From NCBI GenBank assembly GCA_965262555.1, contig OZ253543.1:2691218-2755217 (forward strand): 64,000 nucleotides of DNA, given 5' to 3'. The position numbers were made by a program, and so were the translations under genes. Of this stretch, positions 6,090 through 28,722 are shown piece by piece. A model generated the notes under the pieces. It saw only the letters and a program-made list of their open reading frames with translations. It was not told the origin of the DNA and did no database searches. The stretch's first letter is position 1. Every line of letters begins with the position of its first letter. This DNA comes from Vicinamibacterales bacterium. Its GTDB lineage: Bacteria; Acidobacteriota; Vicinamibacteria; Vicinamibacterales; UBA8438.

Positions 6090-7322
6090 TCAGCGCCGGA
6101 CGTCGGGGAACCGCGGGCGGCCCGGCTCGAGCTGGGTGCCGAACGAATTGAGCGCGATCGACACGATCCGGTAGCCGCCCACCGTAATCACCAGGTCGAT
6201 CAGTTCCGGGGTGCCGTAGCGCTCCGCGAGCGCCTGCCAGGTCGCGTCCGAGACCGTACTGTTACGGTGCAGTCCGTCGGTCGCCCGGATGAGCGTTGCC
6301 TCGAACGGGTCCCAGCCGGGAGCGTCGGCCCCGACGGCAATCGCACGGATCTCGTCGTCGGTCATCCCGATGCGGCGCGCGGCGCGGACGTGCTGCGCCC
6401 ACTCGTACTCCGAGCCGCAGAGCCAGCCGATCCGGAGGATCAGGATCTCGCGGGCCCGGTCGGTCAGCGTCGAGCCGAGCCGGATGTAGGCGGACTGCAC
6501 CGAGCGCGGCCGGTAGAAGACCGGGTGACGCGCCAGCGTCGCATACAGGTTGAGTACCGGTCCGCCCTGCCCCTCCGGATCGAGCAGGCCGCGCACCTCG
6601 TCGGTCCACTCGCCGCGGGGGATGGGACCGAGCCGGGGCGCATCGAGCGGGGCCGGCGGCGGCCCCGGCCGTCCGATCGTGCGCCGCACATCGGCCGGGA
6701 AGCGCTCGCCGAACCGGTCATCCGGCGCCACGCCCAGACTGTTGGCCAGCATCGACAGCAGGATGTATTCGGCGCCGGTGAAAACGACGTCCAGCATCTG
6801 CTGCGCACTGAATCGCCCGGCCAGCACACTCCACGTCGCATCGCTCAGGAATGCGTCGCGGTACAGCTCATCGCCTGCGCGCACCAGCCAGACATCCCGG
6901 ACCCCCCAGCCCGCGTCCGGCCCTTCCGCGATCCGCTGCAGGTCGGCGTCCCCCAGGCCGAACCTGCGGGCCTCGGCCGCCAGGTCCGCCCACACCGCCT
7001 CCGAGCGGCAGAGCCACGCGACGCGCAGCCCAATCAGCAGCGCGTCGACCACCGGCACGGTCGATCGCTGCCGCAGGTAGGCGGCAAGCGGCCCCAGCCC
7101 GTGCAGCGCCGGCGGATGCTCCGCGAGCGTCCGGAGCAGCGTGGTCGCCTCTTCCGGCGCGATGCCCCACGTCTCGATGCCGGCGCGCACCTCGTCGGTC
7201 CACGCCGCGTCGTCCGGCGCGACCGGCGGCACGCGAACCTGTCCTGCCGCCGGATCGACCCCGCCAAGGAAGGCAGCGACCGCGATGGCAAGGGCGGCGG
7301 CAGCACGCATGCGCCCGATCAT
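6090..7322 (-). CDS. exported protein with two carboxymuconolactone decarboxylase (AhpD-like) domains
   Basis: Signal peptide, then two repeats each containing an LRxxWLCxSEYEW/AVWA-type CMD helix motif. Confidence 0.7.
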   Translation of the reverse strand: MIGRMRAAAALAIAVAAFLGGVDPAAGQVRVPPVAPDDAAWTDEVRAGIETWGIAPEEATTLLRTLAEHPPALHGLGPLAAYLRQRSTVPVVDALLIGLRVAWLCRSEAVWADLAAEARRFGLGDADLQRIAEGPDAGWGVRDVWLVRAGDELYRDAFLSDATWSVLAGRFSAQQMLDVVFTGAEYILLSMLANSLGVAPDDRFGERFPADVRRTIGRPGPPPAPLDAPRLGPIPRGEWTDEVRGLLDPEGQGGPVLNLYATLARHPVFYRPRSVQSAYIRLGSTLTDRAREILILRIGWLCGSEYEWAQHVRAARRIGMTDDEIRAIAVGADAPGWDPFEATLIRATDGLHRNSTVSDATWQALAERYGTPELIDLVITVGGYRIVSIALNSFGTQLEPGRPRFPDVRR

Positions 7323-7357
7323 AGACGTTCCGGGCGGCTGCTAGAATCAGCGCTCCG

Positions 7358-8188
7358 ATGGCCAAGATGGACATCGCGTCACTCTTCTCGCTCACCGGCA
7401 AGGTGGCGTTGGTCACCGGCGGATCGCGCGGGATCGGCCGGATGATGGCGGAAGGGCTACTGCGGGCGGGCGCCGCCGTCTACATTTCGGCGCGCACGTC
7501 CGGCGCGTGCGAGCGGACGGCGGACGAACTCGCCGCGCTCGGGCGGTGCGTGGCGCTGCCGGCCAACGTCGCGACGGCCGACGGGCGCGCCGCGCTCGTC
7601 GAAGCGATGGGCGCACGCGAGGATCGCCTGCACATCCTCATCAACAACGCAGGCGCGGCGTGGGGCGCGCCGTATGCGGAGTATCCCGAGTCGGCGTGGG
7701 ACAAGTTGCTGGACCTGAACGTGAAGGCGCCGTTCCTCCTGACCCGCGACCTGACGCCGCTGCTCGAGCGGGCCGCGACCGACGACGACCCGGCGCGGGT
7801 CATCATCGTCGGATCGATCGACGGCATCCATGTGCCGCAGTTGCTGGAAGCGGGGACATTCGCCTACGGCGCAAGCAAGGCGGCGGTGCACCACCTGGCG
7901 AAGACGCTCGCGGTCGAACTGGGGCCGCGCCGCATCACCGTCAACGCGGTAGCGCCCGGCTTCTTCGAGAGCCAGATGACCGCCGGCATCCTCTACACAC
8001 ACGGAGCGAACATCGTCGATGCCTGTCCGCTCGGTCGCATCGGCCGTGCGGCGGACATGGCCGGCATCGCCGTCTATCTGGCGTCGCCCGCCGGCGCGTA
8101 CACGAACGGCGCCGTCATCCCGGTCGACGGCGGGACGCACCTCACCCGCCGCGGCGCGCCGGAGGCCGGAAGACCGGACCGCGACTGA
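7358..8188 (+). CDS. SDR family oxidoreductase
   Basis: TGGSRGIG cofactor motif, NNAG, YGASKAAV catalytic Y-x3-K. Confidence 0.9.
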   Translation: MAKMDIASLFSLTGKVALVTGGSRGIGRMMAEGLLRAGAAVYISARTSGACERTADELAALGRCVALPANVATADGRAALVEAMGAREDRLHILINNAGAAWGAPYAEYPESAWDKLLDLNVKAPFLLTRDLTPLLERAATDDDPARVIIVGSIDGIHVPQLLEAGTFAYGASKAAVHHLAKTLAVELGPRRITVNAVAPGFFESQMTAGILYTHGANIVDACPLGRIGRAADMAGIAVYLASPAGAYTNGAVIPVDGGTHLTRRGAPEAGRPDRD

Positions 8189-8216
8189 CGCCGCCGGCGA
8201 GACCGACACGGAGACG

Positions 8217-9782
8217 ATGATGATCCATCGGAGCCCCTTCCCGGACATCGAGATACCGGTCCGGCCGCTGCACGAACGGGTGTTGGAACATGCCGGCCGG
8301 TGGCCCGGGAAGGCCGCCCTCATCGACGGACCGTCCGGGCGGACACTCACCTATGTGCAACTGCAGGACGCGGTGCGCGGCGTCGCCGCCGGCCTCGCGG
8401 CGCGCGGCTTCGCCAAGGGGGATGTCTTCGCCATCTTCAGTCCCAACCTGCCGGAGTACGCCGCGGCGTTCTTCGGTGTCTCGATGGCGGGGGGTGTCGT
8501 CACGACGATGAACCCCCTCTACACCGCCGAGGAGGTGCACCGGCAGCTCGTCGACTCGGGGGCGACATTCCTGGTGACGGTCCCGCCCTTCCTGGAGGCG
8601 GCGGCCGAGGGTGCGCAGGGGACGCAGGTGAAGGAGCTGTTCGTCTTTGGGGAGGCGGAGGGGGCGACGCCGTTCGCGGCACTCATGGCGGCGGGTGATC
8701 CGCCCCCGGTGGCCCTGGACGCGCGCGCGGATCTCGTGGCGCTTCCCTACTCCAGCGGCACGACCGGCATGCCGAAGGGCGTCATGCTGACGCACTTCAA
8801 CATGGTGGCGAACCTCTCGCAGATCGACGCGGTGGAAGGCATCGAAACCGATCATGTCCTGATCGGCATCCTGCCCCTGTACCACATCTACGGCATGACC
8901 GTGATCATGAACGCCGCGCTGTACGCCGGCGCCACCGTCGTCACCATGCCCCGCTTCGATCTGGAACAGTTCCTCGGCCTGATTCAGCAGTACAGGGTGA
9001 CAACCGGCTACCTCGTCCCGCCGATCGTGCTGGCGCTGGCAAAGCATCCGGCGGTCGATCAGTTCGATATCTCGTCCCTCGACAACGTGATGTCGGGCGC
9101 CGCGCCGCTGCCGGAATCGGTCGCCACCGGCGCCGCCGCACGGAACAACATGCTGGTTCGCCAAGGCTACGGTCTGACCGAGTCGAGCCCGGTAACGCAT
9201 ACGAACCCGAAGAGCCGCGAACTGCGCATCACGTCGGTCGGCACATCGCTCCCGAACACCGAGTGGCGGATCGTCGATGCCGAGTCGGGCAACGACGCCG
9301 CCACGGGCAACCTGGGCGAGGTCTGGATTCGGGGCCCGCAGGTGATGAAGGGCTACCTCCACAACGTGGAGGCGACGCGCAACATGATTGACGCCGACGG
9401 CTGGCTCCACACCGGCGACATCGGCAAGGCGGACGCCGACAGTTACCTCTACGTGGTCGACCGCCTCAAGGAGCTGATCAAGTACAAGGGCTTCCCGATC
9501 GCCCCGGCGGAACTGGAAGCGGTCATCCAGTCCCACCCGGCCGTCGCCGACGCCGCGGTCGTTCCGAGTCCCGACGAGGAGGCGGGCGAGGTCCCCAAGG
9601 CGTTCGTCGTTCTCCGGCCCGATGCCCGGGCGACCGCCGAGGAACTGATGGCCCATGTCGCCGAGCACGTCGCGCCCCACAAGAAGGTCCGCCGGTTGGA
9701 GTTCATCGATGCCATTCCCAAGAACCCCTCCGGCAAGATCCTCCGCCGCCAGCTTGTCGAGCGCGAACGCGCCCGCGCCTGA
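8217..9782 (+). CDS. AMP-binding acyl-CoA ligase (4-coumarate-CoA ligase-like)
   Basis: YSSGTTGMPKGV, GYGLTE, TGDIG, PSGKILRR motifs. The ATG at 8217 avoids overlap with the SDR gene. Confidence 0.9.
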   Translation: MMIHRSPFPDIEIPVRPLHERVLEHAGRWPGKAALIDGPSGRTLTYVQLQDAVRGVAAGLAARGFAKGDVFAIFSPNLPEYAAAFFGVSMAGGVVTTMNPLYTAEEVHRQLVDSGATFLVTVPPFLEAAAEGAQGTQVKELFVFGEAEGATPFAALMAAGDPPPVALDARADLVALPYSSGTTGMPKGVMLTHFNMVANLSQIDAVEGIETDHVLIGILPLYHIYGMTVIMNAALYAGATVVTMPRFDLEQFLGLIQQYRVTTGYLVPPIVLALAKHPAVDQFDISSLDNVMSGAAPLPESVATGAAARNNMLVRQGYGLTESSPVTHTNPKSRELRITSVGTSLPNTEWRIVDAESGNDAATGNLGEVWIRGPQVMKGYLHNVEATRNMIDADGWLHTGDIGKADADSYLYVVDRLKELIKYKGFPIAPAELEAVIQSHPAVADAAVVPSPDEEAGEVPKAFVVLRPDARATAEELMAHVAEHVAPHKKVRRLEFIDAIPKNPSGKILRRQLVERERARA

Positions 9783-24475: not shown

Positions 24476-25006
24476 TTACTCGAACACGTTGATCAGGGCA
24501 TAGGTGATCGAGCCGCCCTCGGGGACGACCACCTGGTGCCACGACCGCGCGGGCACGTGAAGGATGTCCCCCTCGGTGGCCTCGAACGCCTGTGCGCCTT
24601 CGAGGTGCGGTCGCTGGCCTTCGGGAGGCTGTCCCTCGATCCAGTTCACCCGCTCGCCACCCATCAGCACGGTGCCGGCACCCTGCAGGATGACGTAGAC
24701 GTCCCACTTCGTGGTGTGGATCTCCGGCTGCGTGTAGCCGGCGCGGTGAATGATCTGCACGCTGTGCGGCCTGTGGTCGGCTCGGGGCAGCGCGGTCACG
24801 ACCGTGAACGGCGTGTCCCAGATGCCCTCGCCGTTGCGGAGGGCTTCATCGAGCTCACCCTGAAAGCCGGAGACGGCCTCGCCGTCCCAGTGGATGAACT
24901 CGTCGGGGCGAGGCTCGTTCGGGACCTCCCCGAACGGGTCCTGCGCCGCCGCGGCCGCGGGCAGCGCGAGACACGCGAGTAGGGTGAGAAGGCCTGCACG
25001 CCGCAT
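24476..25006 (-). CDS. exported cupin domain protein
   Basis: Signal peptide ending AAAAQ. Cupin beta-barrel motifs (DVYVILQG...GDILHVPA..WH). Confidence 0.7.
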   Translation of the reverse strand: MRRAGLLTLLACLALPAAAAAQDPFGEVPNEPRPDEFIHWDGEAVSGFQGELDEALRNGEGIWDTPFTVVTALPRADHRPHSVQIIHRAGYTQPEIHTTKWDVYVILQGAGTVLMGGERVNWIEGQPPEGQRPHLEGAQAFEATEGDILHVPARSWHQVVVPEGGSITYALINVFE

Positions 25007-25039
25007 GTGTCACCTCCGGTAGCGAGAGTGATGGTTCGA

Positions 25040-25540
25040 TCAGGGCACGGTGTCGAAGCGGATGTTGAACCAGGTGATGCCAGTCGTCTCGCGGATGCCG
25101 TGCGGCACCCCCGCGGGGATGAAGATCAGGTCGCCCGCACCGATGACCCGTTCCTCGCCCCCCTGGATCGCAGCGCCCCGCTCCCCATCGACGGGCTCCC
25201 CGTCCTCGTCAACGATCTGTCCGCCGGTGACGAGCGTCCCCGAACCCTCCCGGATCACGTACACGTCGATCGTGCGGGGGTGCATCAGCGCCGTCTCGCC
25301 GCCCCGGATACGCCGGATGTTGACGTTGTAGCTCCCACCCTCCAGCAGCCGGACGGTGGTGCGCTGATCGGCATCCATCTCCTGCACGATCGCCTCGAGT
25401 TCAGCCAGCGGGAAGTCAGCCGCGCGGTCCGTTGGGGCCTGCTGGCGAACCAGCCGCTGGGCTCCGACTGCGATACCGCTTCCGACCGCGACCAGAAGGA
25501 CGACGCCGACCACCAGGAACCGTCGGATGCTCATGACCAC
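25040..25540 (-). CDS. exported/membrane-anchored cupin domain protein
   Basis: N-terminal hydrophobic segment. DVYVIREGSGTL...GDLIFIPAGVPHG cupin motifs. Confidence 0.7.
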   Translation of the reverse strand: MVMSIRRFLVVGVVLLVAVGSGIAVGAQRLVRQQAPTDRAADFPLAELEAIVQEMDADQRTTVRLLEGGSYNVNIRRIRGGETALMHPRTIDVYVIREGSGTLVTGGQIVDEDGEPVDGERGAAIQGGEERVIGAGDLIFIPAGVPHGIRETTGITWFNIRFDTVP

Positions 25541-25698
25541 GCTCCTCTGACAGGGACGTGACGCGCGTCGAGAGGAAGCGCCCCGCCGCCCAGTCGGTTC
25601 CGGACGTTAACACGAACATCGACGGGCGACCTCCCGATCAAGGGTGCCCCCACCCGGTCGTGCGATGTAGAGTCCTGACCTCATGAGAGGACTCGATC

Positions 25699-26706
25699 AT
25701 GGATGAAGGCTACAACTGGCTGGAGAGCATCGCCGATCGCATGAAGCGAGACGTGGCGAAGGGCGCGGCGCCCCGGGCGGAGCGCCTGACTGTCCGAGAG
25801 CTGCTCGAGAAGTTCGGTTTCCAGCGCCGGAGCGATCGGATCAACAACCACATCCGAAACGAGCTGGATAGGCTCGATCTCCGCACTGATCTGGACATCA
25901 GGGTCGTGTGGCTCGACTCGTCGATCACGATCGAGCTCGACTCCGAAGCCTCGGGCGCGTCCGAGACGCCCCGGACATCCGATCCCACGTACCGGGTCTC
26001 GATGATCCCGGCCGCGAACCGCAAACCCGCCAGCGTCAAGCCCGAGAACTCCCTGGAGGAAGCGACCACCGTCATGCAGATGAACGGCTATTCCCGGCTG
26101 CCCGTCATGAAGAACGAGCGGGACGTCGCCGGAATAGTCACATGGGAGTCAATCGGCACTCGCCTGGCGCTCGGGCGCGACTGTACCTACGTGCGCCAGT
26201 GCATGGAGCCGGCCGAAGTGATTCCCGGCACGACGAGGCTGTTCGACGCCATCGGGATCGTTACGAAGCACGGATACGTGCTGGTGCGCGGCGTGGACCG
26301 GACCATCACTGGCATCGTGACGGTGACTGACCTGACCGACCAGCTTGGCCAGTTCGCCGCGCCGTTCCTGTTCGTCGGCGAGATCGAAGGACATCTGCGG
26401 AATCTCATCCACGGCAAGTTCACTCTCGATCAGTTGAACGCGGCTTCCCTTCAGCAGGAGCCCGTCGAGGGCTCATCCGACCTGACGTTCGGCGGGTTCT
26501 GCCGGCTATTGGAGAACACCGCAAACTGGGAACGGCTTGATCTCGCCATCGACCGGACGGAGTTCATCAAGCACCTCAATTCCGTCAGGGAAATGCGGAA
26601 TGACGTGGTGCATTTCAATCCTGACGGGATTGGCGACGACCGGCGCAAGACCCTCCGCAGCGTTGCCCGTTTCTTCGATAAGCTCGCGCGCACGATGGCC
26701 GCGTAG
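25699..26706 (+). CDS. CBS-pair protein with C-terminal Swt1-like HEPN domain (predicted ligand-gated RNase)
   Basis: About 100 aa of unassigned N-terminal domain. Tandem CBS motifs at about aa 103-215. The C-terminal helical domain carries the canonical HEPN motif R-N-x3-H (RNDVVH, aa 300-305, nt 26596-26613). G+C is lower than the flanks. Confidence 0.8.
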   Translation: MDEGYNWLESIADRMKRDVAKGAAPRAERLTVRELLEKFGFQRRSDRINNHIRNELDRLDLRTDLDIRVVWLDSSITIELDSEASGASETPRTSDPTYRVSMIPAANRKPASVKPENSLEEATTVMQMNGYSRLPVMKNERDVAGIVTWESIGTRLALGRDCTYVRQCMEPAEVIPGTTRLFDAIGIVTKHGYVLVRGVDRTITGIVTVTDLTDQLGQFAAPFLFVGEIEGHLRNLIHGKFTLDQLNAASLQQEPVEGSSDLTFGGFCRLLENTANWERLDLAIDRTEFIKHLNSVREMRNDVVHFNPDGIGDDRRKTLRSVARFFDKLARTMAA

Positions 26707-26777
26707 CGCACGGCGCGAGCACGCAATGTCCTTAGTCCGTCGCGCCCGTCCCAGGATGCGAAAGGAGCTGCAGACCG

Positions 26778-27575
26778 ATGAAGGTGATTACTTGGAACGT
26801 CAACAAGGCCAGCCTCTCCCGCGGCGGCGTATGGACGATGCTGGAACAAGAAGATGCGGACATCGTGCTGCTGCAGGAAGTGACCAGGATTCCTGACGAG
26901 ATTCTGAGACGCTACAACTGCCATGCGCGGTTTCCGAAGTTCTTTGGCGGTCACAACGCACGATTCCAGACGGCAGTTCTCTCCAGGTGGAGGATGAACA
27001 CAACGCCGTTCCTGGCTTCCGAACTCGAGTGGGTCAACAAGATACAGAACACGCGCTACGGATGGATCCACGAGTGCGAGGTTGTCGACCGCGCAGGAAC
27101 AAGATGCCGCGTCGTTTCAGTCCACTCGCCCGCTTTTGCCGTTCCCCGGAAGGAGATCGGCGACGCTGATTTCCAGGCCATCAAGCTGAAGAACAATCCG
27201 AAGCTATGGTTTACCGAGATTCTCTGGTCGTTCTTGCGGAACGCGAACCTTGGCGACGGTACGAACTGGATCGTGGGCGGCGACTTCAACAGCTCGGTCA
27301 GATTCGACAGGCCGCGAAATCGGGGCAACCAGGAGATAATCGCCAGGTTGAACGCCCTCGGATTAACGGATTGCCTCTCGCACCACAACAAGGAACAGCC
27401 CGTGCCGACGTTTCAGCACACGAGCAAGAAGGTGCAAGACCAGCTCGACTACCTCTACGTGAACGCGCCGCTGCTCGGACGCCTGAAGAATGCGCGCGTG
27501 CCGGGCCGCGAGGAAGTGTTCGACGTGAGTCCGCGAGTGAGCGATCACCTTCCGATTGTGTGCGAATTCCACTGA
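26778..27575 (+). CDS. endonuclease/exonuclease/phosphatase (EEP, DNase I-like) family protein
   Basis: All EEP catalytic blocks are present: WNVN, LLQE, GGDFN, DYLY, SDHLPI. Hand-counted 60-nt lines give 47-55% G+C. Confidence 0.85.
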   Translation: MKVITWNVNKASLSRGGVWTMLEQEDADIVLLQEVTRIPDEILRRYNCHARFPKFFGGHNARFQTAVLSRWRMNTTPFLASELEWVNKIQNTRYGWIHECEVVDRAGTRCRVVSVHSPAFAVPRKEIGDADFQAIKLKNNPKLWFTEILWSFLRNANLGDGTNWIVGGDFNSSVRFDRPRNRGNQEIIARLNALGLTDCLSHHNKEQPVPTFQHTSKKVQDQLDYLYVNAPLLGRLKNARVPGREEVFDVSPRVSDHLPIVCEFH

Positions 27576-27661
27576 GGCCGGGCGGGATAGGCTTACATCG
27601 GCTTGAAGACGGACGGGGTCAATGGTCAATCGAGGCGGTTCGCCGGCAACGCGTCAACTCG

Positions 27662-28045
27662 CTACGCCGCCATCGTACGGATGCCGTAGAGTCGTATCCG
27701 GGCATCCCGGGTGACGAGAACGAGTCCTTCGATCTGCGCCTGAGCGATCAAGAACCGATCGAATGGATCACGATGGTGCGGCGGAAGGTTACCCGCCTGC
27801 TCCGCGTGGTGGAAGTTCAGGGGTAGATGAGTGAACCCTCTGTTCTCGATGACCTCCGAGAGGTTGTCCGGGGCGGTGATGCGCCCCTTTGCCCGCTTGA
27901 CCGAAACCTCCCACGCGGTGACGGCGCTTACAAAAACGTCGTTGTGGGCGTCTTCCAGCGCGTTGCGGGCGCGGGTGCTTAGCTTCTGCGGTTCAGCGAG
28001 CGACCACAGGAGCACGTGAGTATCCAGCAGGAGGCGCGCCACCAC
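27662..28045 (-). CDS. vapC: type II toxin VapC (PIN domain)
   Basis: LLLDTHVLLW...AWEV...DPFDRFLIAQA... is the classic PIN signature. Confidence 0.9.
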   Translation of the reverse strand: MVARLLLDTHVLLWSLAEPQKLSTRARNALEDAHNDVFVSAVTAWEVSVKRAKGRITAPDNLSEVIENRGFTHLPLNFHHAEQAGNLPPHHRDPFDRFLIAQAQIEGLVLVTRDARIRLYGIRTMAA

Positions 28046-28047
28046 TA

Positions 28048-28296
28048 CTAGTCGTCCGGAAAGATCCGCGACTGCTCGATCAGATCCATCAACTCTTCGT
28101 CCGGCTCGTCGAAGTCCGGAGCAATCCAGATCTGGCCTTCCAGCCCCCCGAGCTTGCGCTTGGCCTTCCGTTCGCGGTACGGCACCAGCCGCAGATATGG
28201 CTCGCCGGCCCTGGCGATTACAACATCCTCGCCTTCCCAGGCCGCCTTGGCGAGCCGCGAGAGCTGCGACTTGGCTTCGTGCATGTTCACCTTCAT
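28048..28296 (-). CDS. Phd/YefM family antitoxin
   Basis: MKVNMHEAKSQLSRL...VVIARAGEP is the Phd/YefM N-terminus. It ends 2 nt before vapC. GGAGG RBS at 28304-28308 (minus strand). Confidence 0.85.
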   Translation of the reverse strand: MKVNMHEAKSQLSRLAKAAWEGEDVVIARAGEPYLRLVPYRERKAKRKLGGLEGQIWIAPDFDEPDEELMDLIEQSRIFPDD

Positions 28297-28319
28297 CGAT
28301 CGGCCTCCAAGGTGTATAG

Positions 28320-28336
28320 CTAAGTCGGACTAAGTC
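28320..28336 (-). promoter_or_regulatory. direct repeat, possible antitoxin operator
   Basis: CTAAGTC-GGA-CTAAGTC lies about 25-40 nt upstream of the phd start. The central AGTCgGACT is near-palindromic. Confidence 0.25.
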
Positions 28337-28449
28337 TCTCTCGCTCGCCGCGTCCTGTCAACTCTCCGGCACTCCTACAACCTCCGGCGCCTGCGCCTTC
28401 CGATAGACTGCCCCTTCCTCGTGTTCCACCTCAGGTATCCGGTAGATCC

Positions 28450-28722
28450 ATGCAAGTGACGCGCGGCGCAGTCTCCATTCCCATGCTGGCGCTGGTGTGG
28501 GCCGGTGTGCTCGCCCCGTGCGCCGGCGTGGACGAAGATCCGGTCACCGGATCCACGCACTGCTGCCTGGGACCCTACTGGCAGCGAAAGCTCGGCCGGG
28601 ACGCATTCACGGCGTGGCAGGCGTCGGCGCGCGGCGGACTGATTCAGGTGGCCGTCCACGGAGACCGCGTCACGCTGTCAGGCCAGGCGGTCACGGTGCT
28701 GCGCGGCGAGCTGCTGGCCTGA
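28450..28722 (+). pseudogene. 3'-terminal remnant of a PhzF/PBLD-family isomerase gene
   Basis: ...LAPCAGVDEDPVTGSTHCCLGPYWQRKLGRDAFTAWQASARGGLIQVAVHGDRVTLSGQAVTVLRGELL matches only the last 70-75 aa of roughly 290-aa PhzF/PBLD proteins. No N-terminal part is present anywhere upstream. Confidence 0.6.

Follow-up and report, generated by a model that had tools for sequence, protein, structure and literature searches.

The defence protein DS-11 combines a CBS pair with a HEPN domain and has been validated in Escherichia coli as a one-protein anti-phage system (DefensePredictor, Science 2026, PMC13092281; bioRxiv 10.1101/2025.01.08.631726). In this work the C-terminal domain was annotated as HEPN, and each of the substitutions R330A, H335A and Y157A led to loss of defence, Y157 being the CBS residue that contacts the adenine ligand. 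The AlphaFold 3 (AF3) prediction shows a homodimer with an ATP-like ligand at the CBS pair, and the published model posits a still undiscovered adenine derivative as the ligand (PMC13092281). Here we describe a relative of DS-11 from a Vicinamibacterales bacterium (Acidobacteriota). Its gene (gene 1, 25699..26706, + strand, open reading frame of 335 amino acids) lies in a stretch of 64,000 nucleotides which we call the window (contig OZ253543.1, positions 2,691,218 to 2,755,217) and is followed by a gene of the EEP superfamily (gene 2, 26778..27575, + strand, 265 amino acids). A first, sequence-only reading of this DNA had taken the two genes for a candidate defence cassette. Judged by homology, gene 1 is in our view likely to belong to the DS-11 family as an acidobacterial (Vicinamibacterales-type) member and to be a stand-alone anti-phage protein, to which the EEP gene was linked once within a clade.

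The membership of gene 1 can be judged with the NCBIfam equivalog model NF053863 ("DS11_antiphage", CBS domain-containing anti-phage protein), which has a curated cutoff of 260 bits. Gene 1 matches the entire profile (positions 1-305 of 305) with 328.9 bits and an E-value of 2.5e-98; for comparison, the E. coli prototype scores 404.9 bits and homologs from other phyla score 323-377 bits. Homologs from Acidobacteriota, Dehalococcoidia and Burkholderia are all above the cutoff. In a direct comparison with the validated E. coli protein WP_000257686.1, gene 1 is 39% identical over its amino acids 30-326 (E 4e-75), with the domains in the same order. This accession matches the cloned DS-11 in the supplement of the published study, and we found the protein encoded in the chromosome of E. 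coli KE47 (locus L174). The alignment shows that the residues essential in DS-11 are kept in gene 1, Y157 corresponding to Y131, R330 to R300 and H335 to H305. The earlier statement that no named defence system has this composition is out of date as far as gene 1 is concerned, as CBS plus HEPN is the composition of DS-11 (NF053863, PMC13092281).

Gene 1 has the same architecture as E. coli DS-11, with the CBS pair placed between a conserved N-terminal domain and a C-terminal HEPN domain, and is 30 amino acids shorter owing to a shorter linker from the N-terminal domain to the CBS pair. In the AlphaFold 2 (AF2) model, with a mean predicted local confidence (pLDDT) of 84, a small N-terminal α/β domain is followed by a disordered linker, the CBS pair and a helical C-terminal domain. 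The CBS pair or Bateman module (26005..26343, + strand, about amino acids 103-215) had been recognised in the sequence-only reading, and both Pfam (CBS in two stretches, 50.5 bits against a threshold of 24, E 2.7e-13) and Foldseek agree with it; the latter returned solved pairs with AMP, ATP, c-di-AMP or S-adenosylmethionine with a probability of 1.00 and target template modelling (TM) scores of 0.7-0.86. Y131 (26089-26091, + strand), the equivalent of Y157 in DS-11, lies within the pair and is conserved in at least 90% of the sequences in an alignment of 20 homologs. The C-terminal all-helical HEPN domain (26344..26703, + strand, about amino acids 216-335) is also entirely helical when modelled alone (pLDDT 83.5). 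It carries the Rx4H motif RNDVVH (R300-H305, 26596..26613, + strand), which aligns with R330 and H335 of the E. coli protein. The motif had likewise been noticed before, and in fact R300, N301 and H305 show no variation among 20 aligned homologs of 52-94% identity. An Rx4-6H motif within an all-alpha domain, the mark of the HEPN superfamily, is what is found at the C-terminus of gene 1.

The N-terminal domain (25699..25944, + strand, amino acids 1-82) is conserved throughout the family including E. coli DS-11, where it aligns with amino acids 25-73. AF2 predicts the order helix-strand-helix-helix-strand-strand with a pLDDT of about 80-90, and amino acids 83-95 behind it form a linker modelled with low confidence. 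Pfam gave only weak hints of GntR or winged helix-turn-helix domains in 2 of 15 members (best E 0.0035), and a profile of the domain found nothing meaningful among the PDB sequences, the single match being a designed repeat protein. The predicted topology together with the weak GntR matches hints at a winged-helix-like module. The two-domain description of DS-11 leaves the role of this part of the protein undiscussed (PMC13092281).

Following the published model, gene 1 would act in three steps. The CBS pair would bind an adenine-containing ligand, binding would control whether the C-terminal HEPN RNase dimerises or becomes active, and cleavage of RNA at the Rx4H site would block phage propagation, probably in the manner of abortive infection or growth arrest. 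In general, the DS-11 mechanism needs no EEP enzyme. Gene 2 may be an optional accessory or an independent cargo gene of a hot spot for toxin–antitoxin (TA) and defence genes. The membership of gene 1 in the DS-11 family already explains most of the locus, and only the pairing with the EEP gene is possibly new.

A tblastn search of gene 1 against 50,697 phage records gave no match. PADLOC-DB v2.0.0 has no match for gene 1, gene 2 or the neighbouring VapC and Phd genes described below; because the library also fails on the validated E. coli DS-11, which reflects its age, this negative is uninformative and was rejected as evidence against a defence role. Among the matches of gene 1 there are also records of haloarchaeal plasmids and megaplasmids (Haloarcula, Halorubrum, Halomicrobium, Natronococcus and Halobaculum) and of Streptomyces plasmids. 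The haloarchaeal CBS proteins are about 24-28% identical to gene 1 over amino acids 96-333 or so, that is, over the CBS pair and the C-terminal domain with the N-terminal domain outside the match, and may be distant archaeal relatives of DS-11.

Gene 2 belongs to the EEP superfamily. It matches the complete Pfam profile Exo_endo_phos (PF03372, positions 1-225 of 225) with 64.2 bits against a threshold of 24.5 (E 1.8e-17). All EEP catalytic blocks which had been read from the sequence are present, WNVN at amino acids 6-9, LQE at 32-34, GGDFN at 167-171, DYLY at 224-227 and SDHLP at 255-259, and the catalytic residues N7, E34, D169, N171, D224, D256 and H257 are invariant among 18 homologs. The nearest relatives among the PDB sequences are Mth212, NExo and ExoIII (E 1e-6 to 1e-5). 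These apurinic/apyrimidinic endonucleases (PDB 3w2y, 3fzi, 2jc4 and 6fk4) have the EEP fold signature and the catalytic blocks in common with gene 2, with a weak similarity confined to the N- and C-terminal blocks. In addition, gene 2 falls below the cutoffs of the Xth equivalogs TIGR00195 (36.2 bits against 182.55) and TIGR00633 (32.8 bits against 99.05). We predict that gene 2 encodes a divergent, catalytically active EEP enzyme, a phosphodiesterase or nuclease which is remotely similar to ExoIII/Xth.

The score against the Xth models also bears on the question of whether both genes could simply be housekeeping genes, gene 1 coding for a CBS-regulated metabolic protein and gene 2 for an Xth-type DNA-repair exonuclease. 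CBS domains and ExoIII-like enzymes are both common in housekeeping functions, and many DS-11 homologs have metabolic genes around them, the neighbours of the family being mostly housekeeping genes. On the other hand, the equivalog that gene 1 passes was derived from a defence protein of validated function, gene 2 reaches only 36 bits where the Xth cutoff is at 182 bits, both genes belong to an islet of low G+C content that also holds TA modules and shows decay driven by insertion sequence (IS) elements, and their distribution across genomes is patchy. We regard a housekeeping role of the pair as highly improbable.

Among EEP proteins that are at least about 68% identical to gene 2 and encoded on long contigs, a CBS-HEPN gene is nearly always present 71-75 nucleotides (nt) upstream (L161, L162, L163, L164/L165, L167 and L168). 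The exception is L166, where the EEP is 80% identical and the available 272 nt upstream hold no remnant of gene 1. The pairs occur in two flanking contexts. The first one, with PhyH, cupin and DUF6069 genes on one side and PIN/TA and PhzF genes on the other, comprises the window, L001, L004, L008, L161, L164/L165 and L168; the second one, between a beta-lactamase gene and epimerase and HNH/DUF222 genes, comprises L006, L162, L163 and L167. In the gene 1 tree all pair-bearing loci form one terminal, Vicinamibacterales-type clade, and the pairwise identities of gene 1 and gene 2 correlate with r = 0.76. Given the single clade, the two contexts and this correlation, we conclude that the linkage arose once, with gene 2 joining DS-11 in the ancestor of the clade, and that the genes have been co-inherited since then and have moved together to a new place at least once.

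In the window both genes are co-directional and separated by a spacer of 71 nt (26707..26777, + strand), which contains a Shine-Dalgarno sequence, GAAAGGAG, at 26760-26767 ahead of gene 2. When the spacers of seven pair-bearing loci are aligned, the gap varies between 71 and 75 nt and the only parts that can be matched are the Shine-Dalgarno block and the start codon. This alignment gave no sign of a conserved RNA or of a regulatory element other than the Shine-Dalgarno sequence of gene 2. A scan of positions 25400-28500 revealed no promoter- or terminator-like sites.

These observations could be explained by a genuine two-gene variant of DS-11, in which the EEP would serve as a second effector (DNase or phosphodiesterase) beside the RNase, both genes being co-transcribed and selected as a unit. 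Gene order, orientation, the 71-75 nt gap and the Shine-Dalgarno sequence are kept in at least nine loci down to a gene 1 identity of about 60-66%, the pair has two kinds of surroundings (cupin/DUF6069...PhzF and beta-lactamase...epimerase-HNH), the genes co-diverge, no terminator is predicted between them and the catalytic residues of the EEP are invariant. However, the single evolutionary origin means that the association lacks independent replication, and as the flanking synteny is conserved too, adjacency alone is weak evidence. In addition, intact copies of each gene exist at loci in which the other one is disrupted or absent (L004, L167, L002/L003 and L166), and the DS-11 prototype defends without a partner. 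We therefore consider this variant rather unlikely. The cassette is at most a lineage-specific variant, and a single functional two-gene system is not established. The earlier defence inference is thus supported for gene 1, by homology to the validated DS-11, and not for the two genes as one system.

In several genomes the pair has come apart, by independent events. L002 and L003 (Terriglobia) are nested in the pair-bearing clade, lack the EEP gene and have IS elements on either side; in L002, gene 1 stands between IS21-type and other transposase open reading frames. Just upstream of the DS-11 homolog both loci have an NYN-like open reading frame of 178-182 amino acids (L002:3821-4357 and L003:5301-5849; Pfam NYN E 4.5e-4, sub-threshold). 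At L004:7082-8285 the EEP gene is interrupted, with transposase-like open reading frames adjacent and gene 1 intact. Conversely, at L167:2130-4925 an insert of about 1.8 kb with two open reading frames interrupts gene 1 and the EEP gene is intact, and at L008:6001-7727 both genes are degenerate. That each gene survives without the other argues against an obligate toxin–antidote relationship and is compatible with an optional accessory role. A toxin–antitoxin relation between gene 1 and gene 2 was rejected for the same reason.

When the two families are followed outside this clade the association is lost. In a census for which one genome per species was scanned, we found 80 loci of the DS-11 family in many phyla; an EEP gene is present at four of them as judged by tblastn and a hidden Markov model of the EEP domain, and 76 have none. 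Among the four EEP-bearing reference loci, the pair is intact in L001 and L006, the EEP gene is interrupted in L004 and both genes are decayed in L008. Clustering of the neighbours over the DS-11 loci revealed no gene that is common to the whole family. The E. coli DS-11 locus (L174) has no EEP gene either and adjoins an integrase fragment. Starting from the EEP side, a relative of gene 1 is found at none of 80 EEP-anchored metagenome loci, including 42 informative loci whose upstream sequence exceeds 1.1 kb, and EEPs of 58-64% identity have unrelated surroundings. Neither family is paired with the other as a rule, and the adjacency across genomes that a two-gene system would lead one to expect is kept only in one clade. 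Searching the literature, we found nothing relevant on EEP components of anti-phage systems or on a CBS-HEPN plus EEP system. The locus differs from the prototype and from most members of the DS-11 family, which do not have a co-directional EEP gene 71 nt downstream.

Other genes were seen next to DS-11 homologs in this survey. In a Thermoanaerobaculia/Holophagales clade (L037, L039, L042, L045, L055 and L057) the DS-11 homolog is followed by a gene for an AAA_5 (McrB/dynein-like) ATPase of about 815 amino acids, which is located at about 7030-9530 of each locus on the same strand, 27-85 nt downstream, and matches REase_II-type models of PADLOC. This protein may be a different lineage-specific partner of DS-11 or the product of an adjacent defence gene. 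In E. coli KE47 a hypothetical protein of 340 amino acids is encoded convergently with the DS-11 gene (L174:7919-8941, - strand) and has no Pfam or NCBIfam match.

Several points weigh against the interpretation of gene 1 as a stand-alone DS-11 protein to which an EEP gene was linked once. With only 39% identity to the prototype and a host from a different phylum, the defence role of gene 1 is predicted by homology. The whole protein reaches no Pfam HEPN threshold. The Swt1-like character proposed in the sequence-only reading stands insofar as HEPN_Swt1 (PF18731) is the top Pfam family for the isolated C-terminal domain, yet with 14.2 bits (E 0.055) this match remains below the gathering threshold of 27.5; sub-threshold matches of the isolated domain to this family recur in 12 of 17 family members with a best E-value of 3.1e-05. 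A Foldseek search of the isolated domain against the PDB gave no hit at E <= 0.001, HepT (6m6u, 7bxo) and Csx1 (8y7f) appearing at E > 2 with TM scores of about 0.35. The whole gene 1 model retrieved CBS pairs only, and a profile of the C-terminal domain found nothing meaningful among the PDB sequences. Thus, the HEPN assignment depends for the most part on the Rx4H motif, which is invariant, and on the mutants of the published study, and the direct support from our own searches is only moderate. As to the pairing, several of the cases of decay come from metagenome-assembled genomes or long-read assemblies, where the frameshifts are possibly errors (L162 and L164). Finally, the constant gap of 71-75 nt and the Shine-Dalgarno sequence, kept in two contexts down to about 60% gene 1 identity, exceed what would be expected of a pure passenger.

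The HEPN toxins of type II TA systems (HepT-MntA) and the Swt1-like HEPN proteins (PF18731) resemble gene 1 in having an Rx4H motif in a small helical domain. HepT-MntA has an MNT antitoxin partner, whereas gene 1 has none.

A further role for the EEP is suggested by analogy to other ligand-controlled HEPN RNases. RNase L joins an ankyrin sensor for 2-5A to a KEN/HEPN domain, and PDE12, itself an EEP enzyme, degrades 2-5A and in this way silences RNase L. The CARF-HEPN proteins Csm6 and Csx1 are silenced by ring nucleases. In both cases a ligand sensor is fused to a dimeric HEPN RNase and a separate phosphodiesterase clears the ligand. By the same logic, gene 2 could be an off-switch that degrades the adenine-containing ligand of the CBS pair and limits self-damage. 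EEP enzymes include nucleotide and oligonucleotide phosphodiesterases, and gene 1 and the EEP gene are co-inherited. The adenine derivative posited as ligand in the DS-11 model would fit such an activity as well (PMC13092281). On the contrary, gene 2 is by sequence closest to the ExoIII-type DNA enzymes and not to the CCR4/PDE12 clade, and gene 1 is intact without an EEP in L004, in L002/L003 and in the 76 genomes of the census mentioned above. The likeness also has its limits on the side of gene 1, where the sensor is a CBS pair instead of an ankyrin or CARF domain and where, unlike in the RNase L and Csm6 type of logic, no cyclase or synthetase partner was found near the gene. An off-switch function of gene 2 seems very unlikely to us.

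The relatives of gene 2 that stand alone point in another direction. Those with 38-61% identity are recurrently found beside antitoxin-type genes (L092, L094, L096, L097 and L140; L093 and others; L173): BrnA is located 42 nt upstream in five loci, a HicB-like gene downstream on the opposite strand in eight loci, and at L173:4730-4966 a FitA-like ribbon–helix–helix gene lies 34 nt upstream of the EEP relative, near an integrase and a phage portal gene. This suggests that the EEP gene tends to gather in TA/defence hot spots, compare the VapBC neighbour in the window. The EEP might then be an unrelated gene of toxin-like or defence-island type which acts on its own and shares the hot spot with DS-11 and VapBC by chance. 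Such an independent role would be in line with the gain and loss of PIN/TA genes and IS elements at this site in related genomes and with the G+C content of gene 2, which at 57.6% is the lowest of all genes in the islet. Against it, other EEP relatives occupy ordinary metabolic neighbourhoods, no PADLOC model matches, and gene 1 is nearly always retained upstream of close EEPs. We consider an independent role possible, though doubtful. A toxin- or defence-type cargo gene of this kind and a functional coupling of the EEP to gene 1, be it as second effector or as ligand hydrolase, are to us equally tentative, and the remaining weight goes to a neutral co-inherited neighbour or some other role.

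The islet in which gene 1 and gene 2 are found stands out by its base composition. As the sequence-only reading had noted for the two co-directional genes, the G+C content is low: positions 25699-28296 have 61.1% G+C compared to a window mean of 68.2% (standard deviation 1.9% for 2.6-kb windows), rank third lowest among 614 sliding windows, and the global minimum starts at position 25801. Downstream of gene 2 there is a type II TA module on the opposite strand, a VapC of the PIN family (27662..28045, - strand) and a Phd/YefM-like antitoxin (28048..28296, - strand), both assigned with Pfam. VapC is well supported (PIN, 69.6 bits against a cutoff of 23.6, E 4.6e-19) and the antitoxin with 24.6 bits lies under its cutoff of 29.8; the open reading frames are 2 nt apart, so that a PIN toxin with an adjacent small antitoxin is found as is typical for VapBC, and the module reported earlier is indeed present. 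Since the number of PIN/TA genes at the same site differs among related genomes, VapBC is variable island cargo which is separate from the pair of gene 1 and gene 2.

The right edge of the islet is formed by a remnant of a PhzF-family gene (28450..28722, + strand), which is 86% identical to the last 71 amino acids of the 264-amino-acid PhzF gene at the same position in L168 and marks a deletion at this edge of the islet in the window. Directly upstream of the islet are two tandem paralogous cupin-domain genes (24476-25540, - strand), whose N-termini are predicted to be signal-like. The cupin gene at 25040..25540 is conserved as the left border of the insertion site in L001, L004, L008 and L168. 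Accordingly, the insert with DS-11, EEP and VapBC extends from about 25541 to about 28450, between the cupin gene and the truncated PhzF gene, and the genes flanking the islet on both sides are metabolic. The same site in related genomes contains extra PIN/TA genes, IS elements or decayed copies. The site, which the sequence-only reading had likened to a defence island, is a small variable hot spot for TA and defence genes and not a large island. E. coli DS-11 is likewise located in a small mobile or variable islet, with an integrase fragment there in place of the VapBC module and truncated PhzF gene found here, although the hosts differ, ours being a member of the Acidobacteriota with about 68% G+C.

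The locus places the DS-11 family in the Acidobacteriota. The homologous loci extend the family to Chloroflexota, Planctomycetota, Verrucomicrobiota and Proteobacteria, with possible distant relatives on haloarchaeal plasmids, and the three essential residues of DS-11 are conserved across that range of phyla. The clade-specific EEP partner is the only possibly new element. If the EEP does act on the CBS ligand, its substrate would offer an experimental route to the identity of the DS-11 signal; if it acts otherwise, the locus would be an ordinary case of a chromosomal hot spot that gathers defence and TA cargo.

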